Shown one piece after another: positions 49,101 to 52,100 of a stretch of 64,000 bases of DNA (positions within the stretch are counted from its first letter, which is position 1; each line of letters opens with the position of its first letter). The position numbers are program-made. The DNA is taken from assembly GCF_003991155.1 (NCBI RefSeq), contig NZ_CP031293.1; one strand, 5' to 3'. This stretch comes from Escherichia coli (GTDB lineage: Bacteria; Pseudomonadota; Gammaproteobacteria; Enterobacterales; Enterobacteriaceae).

Positions 49101-52100
49101 TGCTCATTACCAGCCCGCGCATCACTTCTACAATGCCTGACGGCGGCGAAATATCACCCGCGCTACTGGATAAGTGCAGGGTAGAAGGGAAGGCAAAACT
49201 GAAGATTACTGCGGCCAGAGCAGCAGAGAAGGTGCCCAGCAGATAGAGGAACAAAATAGGGCGGATATTGGTTTTCTGCCCGTGCTGGTGGTTAGCAATA
49301 GATGCCATTACCAGCATCAACACCAGGATGGGGGCAACGGCTTTCAGTGCGCCGACGAACAAAGTACCTAACAGACCAACAGCTTCCGCCGCGGGTTTTG
49401 AGATCCATGCCAGAAGAATCCCCAGAACAAGGCCGACCAGGATTTGTTTTACCAGGCTGCCATGAGCCAGACGCCGGAATAGCCCCGGTGAACGTTGCGT
49501 AGTCATTTTTCGATCCTTTCATTGTGTTGTCGCACATTCCTGGTGCGTTCTGTCGACGCATCTTTCAGGATGTAACAAAGTGTTTGCAAGGTCGAGTATA
49601 AGGAAAGTTACAGCTTCGGGAAGCGAAAAATGCTGGATTTTAAAGAGAGGTCATATTTTGCAACTTAATGGTTACATTTATTTGACATAAAAATAAAGCC
49701 CAACGTGCGGCTTCCAGACTGATGACAACGTCAAAAAAGTACTCGGTCAGTCCCCTCGCCCCTTTTGGGGAGAGGGAGAAAACGGTGCTCATGTTGATGA
49801 CAGGGTACACGGCTTAGGCAGATTAAAAATCATCCAACCCGCTGCTTATCATGCCGATAATTCACCCAGGCGTTGATAATAAACGTCATCACCAGAATGC
49901 CAAACACCACGCCCAGCGAGACGGCGATTGGAATATGGTAGAAGTCGACAATCAGCATCTTGATACCGATAAACACCAGAATCACCGCCAGACCATATTT
50001 GAGCATCGAGAAACGTTCTGCTACGCCCGCCAGCAGGAAATACATCGCACGCAGGCCGAGGATCGCAAACAGGTTTGAGGTCAGCACAATAAACGGGTCA
50101 GTGGTCACGGCGAAGATAGCCGGAATACTATCCACGGCGAAAATCACGTCGCTCAACTCCACCAGAATCAGCACCAGCATCAGCGGCGTGGCATACAACA
50201 AACCATTCTTACGCACAAAGAAATGCTCGTTGTCGATGGTGTCGGTCATGCGCAAATGACCGCGTAGCCAGCGCACCAGCGGCTTGTCACCAATACCTGA
50301 TTCATCTTCATGAGCCAGCGCCATCTTCACGCCAGTAAACAGCAGGAAGGCACCGAAGATATACAGGATCCAGTCGAACTGCGAAATCAGCCAGCTGCCA
50401 GTGAAGATCATGATGGTACGCAGAACAATCGCCCCGAGTACGCCATACACGAGCACGCGGCGTTGTAATGCCGCCGGAACAGAGAAATAGCTGAACAACA
50501 TCAGCCAGACGAAGACGTTATCGACCGCCAGTGATTTCTCAATCAGATAACCCGTGAGGAAGGCCAATGCCTGTGGATCGGCAACGGCGCGACCTTCGGT
50601 TTGCACCAGATACCACCAGAAAGCGGCGTTAAACAGTAACGACAGCGTCACCCAGACCAGCGACCAGGCCGCAGCCTGTTTCATGGTCATGGCATGTGCC
50701 CCACGACGCCCCTGCAACAACAGGTCGATAGCCAGCATAATGGTGACAACAACAGCGAATCCGCCCCATAGCAACGGCGTGCCGACAGTATTCATAGAAG
50801 TTCCTTACACATAAAAAAACGGCCAACGTCGGAAGACGTCAGCCGCTGCTTTTTATGCATAGACCTCGCCTTCCGGCAAGGTCTCACTTACAACAAAAAA
50901 GGAATACGTCTGCGTATTCCTTTCGGGTTGCCCGGTGACCGGATGTGGTTTTTCACACATCGTAATGACGATCGACCGGCAATGAAGTTACTCCCCTTTG
51001 CAGGTAACAAAGTATGACAGACCATTCAGTCAGTCAATGGTCTGTTACATACCTTTTACACTGTTTTACTTTGGCAATTATAGTTTTACGTTATCTGCCG
51101 GAAAAATCACCCCAGTCTGGCGGCGGATCTCGGTCAGCAGTTTGGCGGTGATGCGACTGACCGCCAGCCCTGGATGATCCACCAGATGCTCATCCACCAG
51201 TTCAGCAAACAGCTCTGCTTCGTAGAGCATGGTATTAATATGCTGCGGCTGGGTGAGATCCTGCATCTGGCTGCCACGCGGAACAAAGCAAACTTTCTGG
51301 CATTCAGACAGTTTTTCAATCACCAGCGATCCCGCTTCGCCCTGAATCTCGCTTGCCAGGACAGAATCGCTCACTTTTGAGTGCTGCAACGTAACGCTGA
51401 AATCACCGTAATCCATTACCACCACGCCGTGGGCATCTACACCGCTTGCCAGCAAACTGGCGGTTGCCTGCACGCTTTTCGGTTCACCGAATAATGCCAC
51501 CGCCGACGCCAGGCAGTAAAAGCCGATATCCATAATTGAACCGTTAGAGAATGCCGGATTAAAGGTGTTGGGATTCTCACCATCCAGGTAACGTTGATAC
51601 CGCGAGGAATACTGGCAATAGTTGAAAAAGACTTTACGCAGTTTGCCGACTTTCGGCAGCGCCTGGCGCAACAGATGAAAGTTCGGCAGGCTGGCGGTTT
51701 TAAATGCCTCAAACAGCACCACCTGATTTTCCCGCGCACAGGCAATGGCGGCATCCACTTCCGCCAGATTCGACGCCAGTGGCTTCTCGCAAATCACATG
51801 AATTTTGTGACTAAGGAAAAGTTGTGTCTGGGAAAAGTGCAGGGAATTCGGGCTGGCAATATACACCGCGTCAATGGCATCGCTTTCTGCCATCGCTTCC
51901 AGCGACGTAAACAGATGCTCGACAGAAAAATCATTGGCGAAGTGCTGGGCCTGTTCAAGACTGCGGGAATAAACGGCGGTTAACTTGTATTTACCGCTCT
52001 CATGGGCGGCCTCGACGAACTGGCGAGTGATCCAGTTCGTACCAATCACAGCGAAACGTATCATAACGCGTGGATACTCCATAAAGGGATTCTCTCGTCA

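Follow-up and report, generated by a model that had tools for sequence, protein, structure and literature searches.

The alx leader of Escherichia coli as a three-way-junction variant of the yybP-ykoY Mn2+ riboswitches

The ygjR-alx Locus

The stretch of DNA considered here, 64,000 nucleotides long and called the window in what follows, is part of the chromosome of Escherichia coli (contig NZ_CP031293.1). Between the genes ygjR and alx, it contains a non-coding gap of 282 nt (50796-51077, minus strand) in which the 5' leader of alx is found. This leader, at 51002-50796, is almost certainly the known PRE/SraF element, that is, the alx-type three-way-junction variant of the yybP-ykoY Mn2+ riboswitch, with a co-transcriptional ON/OFF mechanism. 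Work on the element goes back to 2001-2009 and has by now produced a crystal structure; the window brings no new biology. Structures, conservation, covariation, mutually exclusive pairings and the order of energies were computed here, and Mn2+ binding, the effect of pH, the positions of the pauses and the responses of reporters are taken from the literature. The locus is organized as follows.

51078-51080, minus strand: stop codon of ygjR, from the reading of its open reading frame (ORF)
50796-51002, minus strand: alx 5' leader (PRE/SraF region), 207 nt, from the transcription start (+1) to the base preceding the ATG
50795-50793, minus strand: ATG of alx, from the ORF reading
49830-50795, minus strand: alx coding sequence, 321 aa, TerC family, Mn2+ exporter (RefSeq annotation)

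The region 50600-51300 is present between ygjR and alx in 5419 of 5426 complete genomes and is 100% identical to several E. coli genomes, so that the element is the E. coli alx riboswitch, or PRE, or SraF, without any difference in sequence. The gene downstream is one of metal homeostasis, a mark of the class; Alx matches the Pfam TerC family (PF03741) with 181.8 bits. The gap carries 7 inverted repeats of at least 8 nt and two terminator-like hairpins with U-runs; three such sites are found in 50600-51300, where 0.6 would be expected.

The original prediction, made from the sequence of the window, had described about 280 bp of structured leader with several inverted repeats at 50796-51077 on the minus strand. 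The interval is exact and the repeats are there, but the leader itself is shorter. It occupies 50796-51002, and the remaining 75 nt (51003-51077, about a quarter of the gap) correspond to the promoter and the 3' end of ygjR. Indeed, position 51002 is the only start compatible with the published numbering of A11, U35, A37, and A137 and with termination near 108 and 190. Published numbers were converted as window = 51003 - n, and all published alx landmarks, these nucleotides and terminators as well as helices P5, P6, and P5/P6, then map onto the window.

Architecture of the Aptamer

For comparison, 80 loci were gathered via the Alx protein, a choice blind to the RNA, from Escherichia through Serratia, Yersinia, and Pantoea. 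The alignment contains 69 distinct uninterrupted leaders, to which counts out of 69 refer. The elements of the aptamer in the window are the following.

50876-51001, minus strand: Mn2+ aptamer of the three-way-junction type, made up of P1.1, L1, P1.2, L2 linker, P3.1, L3, P3.2, and P4 (from our model R1 and covariation)
50989-50996, minus strand: L1 signature GGGGAGUA, end of P1.1 and 5' side of L1, A11 at 50992; invariant in 69/69
50980-50984, minus strand: L2 linker CAUUG in place of helix P2, just 5 nt between P1.2 and P3.1
50962-50968, minus strand: metal-binding loop L3, UCAUUAC, U35 to C41, A37 at 50966
50932-50979, minus strand: left-leg hairpin, with P3.1 (50979-50969 with 50941-50932) around L3 and P3.2 (50961-50956 with 50947-50942)
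50891-50930, minus strand: helix P4, the top of which is intrinsic terminator B (hairpin 50920-50901, U6 tract 50900-50895)
50876-50889, minus strand: 3' strand of the aptamer, or switch strand, AAGU-GAGA-CCUUGC (3' sides of P1.2, L1, and P1.1); invariant in 69/69

Read on the minus strand, the leader shows GCAAAGGGGAGUAACUU close to its 5' end and, some 110 nt downstream, GUAAGUGAGACCUUGCCG. In the fold, GGGGAGUA (50996-50989) lies opposite GAGACC (50885-50880) and both are flanked by P1.1 and P1.2, which is the L1 loop of the class. The 64-kb window contains a single instance of the joint pattern GGGGAGUA-N-GAGACC, and 100 shuffles contain none. The L1 signature is identical in the leader of E. 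coli mntP and in the consensus of RF00080, the Rfam model of the family, where uUGGGGAGUAGCc matches alx AAGGGGAGUAACU.

The second loop characteristic of the class, L3, is present as a one-sided 5' bulge between P3.1 and P3.2. Its heptamer is UCAUUAC in 57 of the leaders, UCAUGAC in 6, UCACUAC in 4, and UCAAUAC in 2, with U35, C36, A37, A40, and C41 invariant. A role of A37 has been described in the L3 loop of alx, the sequence of which departs from the family consensus ACAUACU at several positions (PMC12153347).

Helix P2, and with it a four-way junction, is found in none of the 69 leaders, so that the junction is a three-way one. This is also the published description of the alx aptamer, which is treated in the field as a variant and not as grounds for exclusion (PMC12153347, PMC12934788). 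The features that define the alx-type subclass are all present: the L2 linker instead of P2, an L3 loop resembling UCAUUAC, and a P5/P6 platform upstream of an alx orthologue. L2 corresponds to a C19.G23 capping loop, in which a C.A+ wobble of C19 with A114 has been suggested to sense pH (PMC12934788). At C19 (window 50984), 56 leaders have C and 11 have G, and 2 lack the nucleotide; U18, G23, and A114 never vary. Natural tests of the C19 pH-sensing model would be offered by Pluralibacter, Pantoea, and their relatives.

Terminator B accounts for a landmark of the published numbering, in vitro termination near 108 nt (PMC9472077). It is lineage-specific (50895-50920 in the window): P4 varies from 12 to 63 nt, and a U-run is found in about 14 of the 69 leaders, in Escherichia, some Citrobacter, and a few others.

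Conservation and Covariation of the Leader

Of the 80 loci, 78 have the element in front of the alx orthologue, and the motifs GGGGAGTA and GAGACC are exact in 73. Among the remaining 7, five have large insertions within peripheral stems and two have no aptamer. The L1 strand, the core of L3 (CGUCA..ACG), and the entire 3' strand are invariant in 69/69. Across the alignment, 98.4% of the cells are paired in the ON structure and 17 pairs show double changes; no measure is reached by any of 500 shuffles, and pairing falls to 30-45% when the structure is slid. The OFF structure is paired at 95.3%. The individual helices behave as follows.

P3.1: compensatory changes in 6/9 pairs, 99.7% of cells paired
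P3.2: compensatory changes in 5/6 pairs, 92% of cells paired
Base of P4: compensatory changes in 3/4 pairs
Alternative ON helix: compensatory changes in 3/9 pairs, 99.4% paired
P1.1 and P1.2: no compensatory change, the sequence never varies

Helix P5, which belongs to the OFF state, is paired at 91% across species; as the invariant switch strand provides its 5' arm, compensatory changes are absent. The P6 terminator, recognized as GCCG followed by at least four T, is found in all 69 leaders. The comparison separates parts of the riboswitch predicted to be essential, namely L1, L3, the P1 strands, P5, P6, and the complementary P5/P6 loops, from parts predicted to be dispensable or lineage-specific, namely the P4 terminator, the loop of P3.2, nucleotide C19 in the capping loop, and the complementarity between the Shine-Dalgarno (SD) sequence and L1.

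Several leaders carry insertions of about 100-130 nt that resemble REP/ERIC elements. They are located in P4 (L006, L015, L035), in P3.2 (L055, L025), or between P6 and the SD sequence (L025, L047, L067). The core motifs are intact in these leaders, which marks the parts of the riboswitch that tolerate large insertions.

The aptamer has been lost upstream of two alx orthologues, those of L026 (Atlantibacter sp. RC6, ~1390-1500) and L078 (Rouxiella aceris, ~1400-1500). In L026, the 5' half of L1 is fused directly to the platform (CTGCAAAGGGGAGTCACTTCCTTGCCGGAAGGCGAG), and a sister species (L029) has the full aptamer. The P6 hairpin persists in both, and in L078 this terminator hairpin is all that is retained. 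The two loci represent natural "aptamer deletion" experiments.

Expression Platform and Alternative Pairings

Downstream of the aptamer, the leader contains the strands from which the ON and OFF conformers are built. Some of them are paired in the minimum free energy (MFE) structure.

50861-50884, minus strand: hairpin P5 of the OFF state, AGACCUUGCC-GGAA-GGCGAGGUCU, with the aptamer's own 3' strand as its 5' arm; present in the MFE structure
50867-50875, minus strand: 5' partner in the alternative ON helix (CCGGAAGGCG region), made up of the P5 loop and its flanks
50830-50838, minus strand: 3' partner in the alternative ON helix (CGUCUUCCG), taken from the top and the loop of P6
50813-50847, minus strand: hairpin P6 and U7 tract, intrinsic terminator D of the OFF state; a transcript of SraF size ends here, near 190 nt
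50801-50806, minus strand: alx SD sequence AAGGAA, paired in the MFE structure with the rising strand of L1/P1.2
50859-50861, minus strand: pause cluster 142-144 ("pause 1"), converted from the positions in PMC9472077

The nucleotides 50884-50875 of the switch strand pair either with 51001-50995, forming P1.1, or with 50870-50861, forming P5, as is typical of the switch helix of the class. Over its whole length (50889-50876), the switch strand has 51001-50985 as its partner in the aptamer and 50870-50861 as its partner in P5. The pairing of CGGAAGGCG with CGUCUUCCG, in turn, is mutually exclusive with P5 and with P6. Termination near 190 nt, at the place of P6, was observed (PMC9472077).

The full leader folds at -95.1 kcal/mol, versus -56.5 +/- 4.5 kcal/mol for 200 dinucleotide shuffles (z -8.67, 0/200). 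This MFE structure is the OFF conformer, with P3, P4, P5, an extended P6, and the SD sequence paired to the freed L1 strand, and it agrees with the published inactive model. The published ON structure evaluates at -71.9 kcal/mol. Since OFF is about 23 kcal/mol more stable than ON, the choice between the two would have to be made during transcription. In folds of the growing transcript, P1 is best at 127-131 nt and has been displaced by P5 by 144 nt. This takeover at 131-144 nt coincides with the pause cluster at 142-144 (PMC9472077).

The loop of P5 (GGAA, 50871-50874) and the loop of P6 (UUCC, 50831-50834) are perfectly complementary. Across species, they covary as GGAA/UUCC, GAAU/AUUC, and GAAA/UUUC or UUUU. 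The aligned sequences thus show that the P5 and P6 loops pair with each other. This supports the ON helix and fits a loop-loop kissing contact equally well; within the ON helix, it is at the loop nucleotides of P5 and P6 that covariation is seen, so that a full helix and a loop-loop kiss are indistinguishable.

Proposed Mechanism

Transcription starts 7 nt after the promoter TTGACT-17-TACTTT, and the first ~126 nt form the aptamer. The right leg, P1.1-L1-P1.2, is capped by the 5-nt linker and the left leg, P3.1-L3-P3.2, is stacked on P4. Mn2+ held between L1 and L3 would dock the two legs and keep P1.1 closed, and alkaline pH would ease binding. In this ON state, the free CCGGAAGGCG would pair with CGUCUUCCG, thereby removing the P6 terminator and leaving the SD sequence single-stranded, which would allow read-through into alx and its translation. 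Without Mn2+, the invariant 3' strand of P1.1/L1 would be captured by GGCGAGGUCU and P5 would form. P6 would then fold as a terminator and yield the ~190-nt SraF RNA. In those E. coli transcripts that reach full length in the OFF state, the SD sequence would pair with the freed L1 strand and expression would be off.

Published experiments bear on this mechanism. Binding of Mn2+ between L1 and L3 with docking of the legs is documented by a crystal structure (9JGM), by single-molecule Förster resonance energy transfer, and by reporters (PMC12934788, PMC12153347, PMC10197570), and the alx leader has been probed co-transcriptionally and described as a three-way junction (PMC12153347). The tuning of aptamer docking by pH goes through L3 and the L2 capping loop (PMC12934788). 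The pH response depends on Mn2+ binding, alkaline pH alone being insufficient (PMC12153347). With alx reporters, the translational response reaches 68-fold with pH and 21-fold with Mn, versus 5-fold and 2.7-fold for the transcriptional one (PMC10197570).

The view, already expressed from the sequence of the window, that the alx leader is a pH-responsive RNA of the yybP-ykoY type controlling alx translation is thus borne out by the literature (PMC12153347, PMC10197570, PMC12934788), and by the L1 signature, the covarying two-leg architecture, the TerC gene, and the exclusive pairings of the P1.1 3' strand. That earlier account omitted the ligand Mn2+.

Relationships with Other Members of the Family

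The canonical four-way-junction aptamer of E. coli mntP (PDB 4Y1M per PMC12153347) has the same order of elements as alx and identical GGGGAGUA and GAGACC motifs. In mntP as in alx, L3 bulges from the 5' side of the left-leg hairpin and contains a conserved adenosine, the expression platform shares the 3' strand of P1.1, and the element responds to Mn2+ and precedes a Mn exporter. mntP does not respond to pH, unlike alx (PMC12153347, PMC10197570). The two also differ by helix P2, which has 19 nt in mntP where alx has the 5-nt linker, by L3, which is ACAUAC(U) in mntP and UCAUUAC in alx, and by P4, which is short and without a terminator in mntP whereas that of alx contains one. The left leg of RF00080 (outer helix, 7-nt 5' bulge, inner helix) is that of alx; however, the Rfam model expects P2 and another L3.

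Among Firmicutes, L. lactis yoaB and B. subtilis yybP are examples of transcriptional yybP-ykoY riboswitches. In these members, P1.1 stabilized by Mn2+ blocks a downstream terminator (PMC12153347). The alx leader resembles them by its conserved terminator, P6, which is disrupted by the ON helix. It differs from them by an additional relay hairpin, P5, and by a second terminator inside the aptamer, and in E. coli the main measured effect is translational (PMC10197570).

Results that Weigh Against the Assignment and the RF00080 Blind Spot

Several of our results weigh against the assignment or the mechanism. The first ones concern covariance models. RF00080 (Rfam 15) gives no match in the 64-kb window at the gathering threshold of 45 bits. 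There is no match either at E<=10 with lax filters over 50700-51200 (501 nt), or on the K-12 locus at E<=10, or at E<=1 in any of 17 alx leaders from 17 other Enterobacterales species. In the reverse direction, our own alx-type model R1, built from 69 leaders, detects the window element with 124.1 bits (E 2e-34) as its sole match in 64 kb, and gives the mntP aptamer 5.0 bits (E 2.9 in 6 kb, 0.13 in 261 nt), aligning the P1.1/L1/P1.2 frame only. Hence, covariance models provide no link between alx and canonical members in either direction. Second, P1.1 and P1.2 show no covariation, since neither ever varies, and this part of the comparison is uninformative. Third, when P1 is enforced in a thermodynamic fold, the published ON helix is not produced (-79.3 kcal/mol, P6 retained). 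Finally, the complementarity between the SD sequence and the L1 strand is not conserved across the 69 species.

The negative scans have to be read together with a control. RF00080 scores the E. coli mntP leader (L003:962-1077, K-12) at 41.6 bits (E 7.6e-9), again below the gathering threshold, and gives alx no score. The model was thus not missing from the library, an explanation ruled out by this match. The mntP aptamer is a crystallographically proven member of the class (PMC12153347). Since a proven member also falls below the threshold, an RF00080 score is no valid exclusion test for E. coli members; the negative result is a property of the model and says nothing on the alx sequence. The original prediction had proposed precisely a yybP-ykoY covariance scan as its check, and the absence of a match formally contradicts it; we judge this outcome to be a false negative of the model. 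Weak Rfam matches at E<=10 (STnc370, miRNAs, snoRNA) were set aside as noise caused by the terminator hairpins. The link between alx and canonical members rests on motif identity, collinearity, and published structures.

The blind spot extends to annotation and to surveys. RefSeq records (PGAP genomes, MG1655) annotate no riboswitch feature at alx or at mntP. A 2026 preprint census based on Rfam RF00080 hits described the alx L3 sequence as restricted to Bacillales (PMC12934788). Contrary to this census, UCAUUAC is present in 57/69 alx leaders of Enterobacterales, and the Bacillales-only distribution is probably an ascertainment artefact inherited from RF00080. A covariance-model scan is therefore unsafe as a refutation test at alx, and censuses based on Rfam inherit the gap.

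As to the other points, invariance of P1.1 and P1.2 is also what strands with two alternative pairings should show. The P1-enforced fold is, within the thermodynamic model, counted as evidence for kinetic control rather than against the mechanism. Indeed, as the ON fold is far less stable and enforcing P1 does not suffice to produce it, ON would be reached kinetically and held by the ligand and by tertiary contacts.

Alternative Interpretations

The last of these points, the variable SD pairing, leads to the strongest alternative, which concerns the output of the switch. The conserved output of alx-type leaders could be antitermination at P6, with occlusion of the SD sequence by the L1 strand as a lineage-specific addition in Escherichia, Serratia/Yersinia, and a few others. 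The P6 hairpin and its U-tract are present in 69/69 leaders and are retained in the aptamer-less L026 and L078, and the helix that disrupts P6 covaries. The duplex between the SD sequence and the L1 strand has -10.7 kcal/mol in E. coli, and is weak across the 69 species (median -6.0 kcal/mol, median z -0.23, z < -2 in 8/69), with at least 3/4 of the SD core paired in the MFE structure of 19/69 species only. Even in E. coli, the transcriptional reporter responds to pH and Mn (PMC10197570). However, the translational response is far above it in the same study. MFE structures and duplex energies are moreover crude proxies for ribosome access, and other species might occlude the SD sequence with another partner, as the comparison covered the L1 strand. 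We regard this alternative as less likely than not. The wider proposal, in which P6 antitermination is the conserved output, SD occlusion is lineage-specific, and Rfam and RefSeq are blind to the three-way-junction subclass so that Rfam-based censuses mis-state its distribution, is likewise advanced as tentative.

A second alternative is the original PRE model of a pure pH sensor acting via RNA polymerase pausing, in which alkaline pH lengthens two pauses and gives the active fold more time, with no ligand. Mutations that alter the strength or the position of the pauses alter alx translation (PMC3874183), and the takeover of P1 by P5 in our growing-transcript folds falls at the first pause cluster. 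But the lengthening of the pauses at alkaline pH (PMC3874183) was not reproduced on re-measurement; the pauses were shortened or unaffected, and both had been mis-mapped (PMC9472077). Besides, alkaline pH by itself cannot activate and Mn2+ binding is needed (PMC12153347), and the invariance of the L1/L3 metal-site nucleotides in 69 species is hard to explain without a ligand. A mechanism of this kind is thus very unlikely. Control through transcriptional pausing, as the original prediction had put it, follows this 2009/2013 model; what survives of it is an apparent contribution of pausing to the folding window.

It has also been considered that the region chiefly encodes a trans-acting small RNA (sRNA), SraF, of ~190 nt and ending at terminator D, with regulation of alx in cis being secondary. 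The two intrinsic terminators of the leader do give discrete RNAs of ~108 and ~190 nt (PMC9472077, PMC12153347), and it was an sRNA screen that first drew attention to the region (PMC9472077). Yet the element always immediately precedes alx orthologues, conservation falls precisely on the aptamer core and the switch strands, SraF has no known target or Hfq-type seed, and deletion of the leader de-represses alx in cis (PMC10197570), all of which makes a chiefly trans-acting role highly improbable.

Finally, the idea that the alx leader is an independent enterobacterial element sharing two short motifs with yybP-ykoY by convergence, to which the unlinked covariance models, the three-way instead of four-way junction, and the different L3 lend some color, is scarcely credible in view of the collinear order P1.1-L1-P1.2 ... 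P3.1-L3(5' bulge)-P3.2 ... P4 ... P1.2'-L1'-P1.1', the identity with mntP at 8/8 positions of L1 and 6/6 of GAGACC, the downstream gene family, which is that of the founding member ykoY (TerC), and the reported crystal structure with its conserved metal-binding core (PMC12934788).

Promoter, ygjR 3' Hairpin, and Other Features of the Window

The alx leader had been called, from the sequence, the only clear riboswitch-like element of the window, and an Rfam scan at gathering threshold agrees with this statement. The scan gave just two matches. One is RNase P RNA (rnpB, 13863-14239, plus strand; RF00010, 318.6 bits, full length) and the other a marginal match to the ES036 (CssrF) sRNA (33005-33045, minus strand; 38.4 bits for a gathering score of 37.6).

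Two ORFs were considered as leader peptides. The first, of 45 aa (50888-51025), was rejected as it begins upstream of +1 and the second, a 65-aa ORF starting with TTG (50629-50826), as it is out of frame.

Upstream of +1, the 75 nt that precede the leader contain the following elements.

51032-51037, minus strand: -35 hexamer of the alx promoter, TTGACT (sequence reading)
51009-51014, minus strand: -10 hexamer of the alx promoter, TACTTT, with a 17-nt spacer and 7 nt before +1
51017-51045, minus strand: perfect 10-bp inverted repeat, ACAGACCATT / AATGGTCTGT, straddling the -35 box and outside the leader

TTGAC is conserved at fixed spacing in 58/79 orthologous upstream regions, and the -10 box of the orthologues reads TAYTTT. 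A consensus sigma-70 scanner did not report the alx promoter, since its -10 box matches the consensus at 3/6 bases. On the plus strand, a promoter-like TTTACA-18-TATAGT (51055-51084, 10/12 matches) points toward ygjR in antisense; one such site was found where 0.7 would be expected, and it is probably a chance occurrence.

Around the inverted repeat, a wider hairpin (~51003-51063) also spans the -10 box, and the fold of 51000-51080 has -27 kcal/mol (z -5.1). The arms of the promoter hairpin are paired at 72.2%, versus 67.0 +/- 0.9 when shuffled and 30-40% when slid. Compensation between the arms is seen in the Escherichia, Citrobacter, and Enterobacter lineages, and the hairpin is absent in Klebsiella and Raoultella. 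The inverted repeat at 51017-51045 is probably the 3' hairpin or terminator of ygjR, superimposed on the alx promoter.

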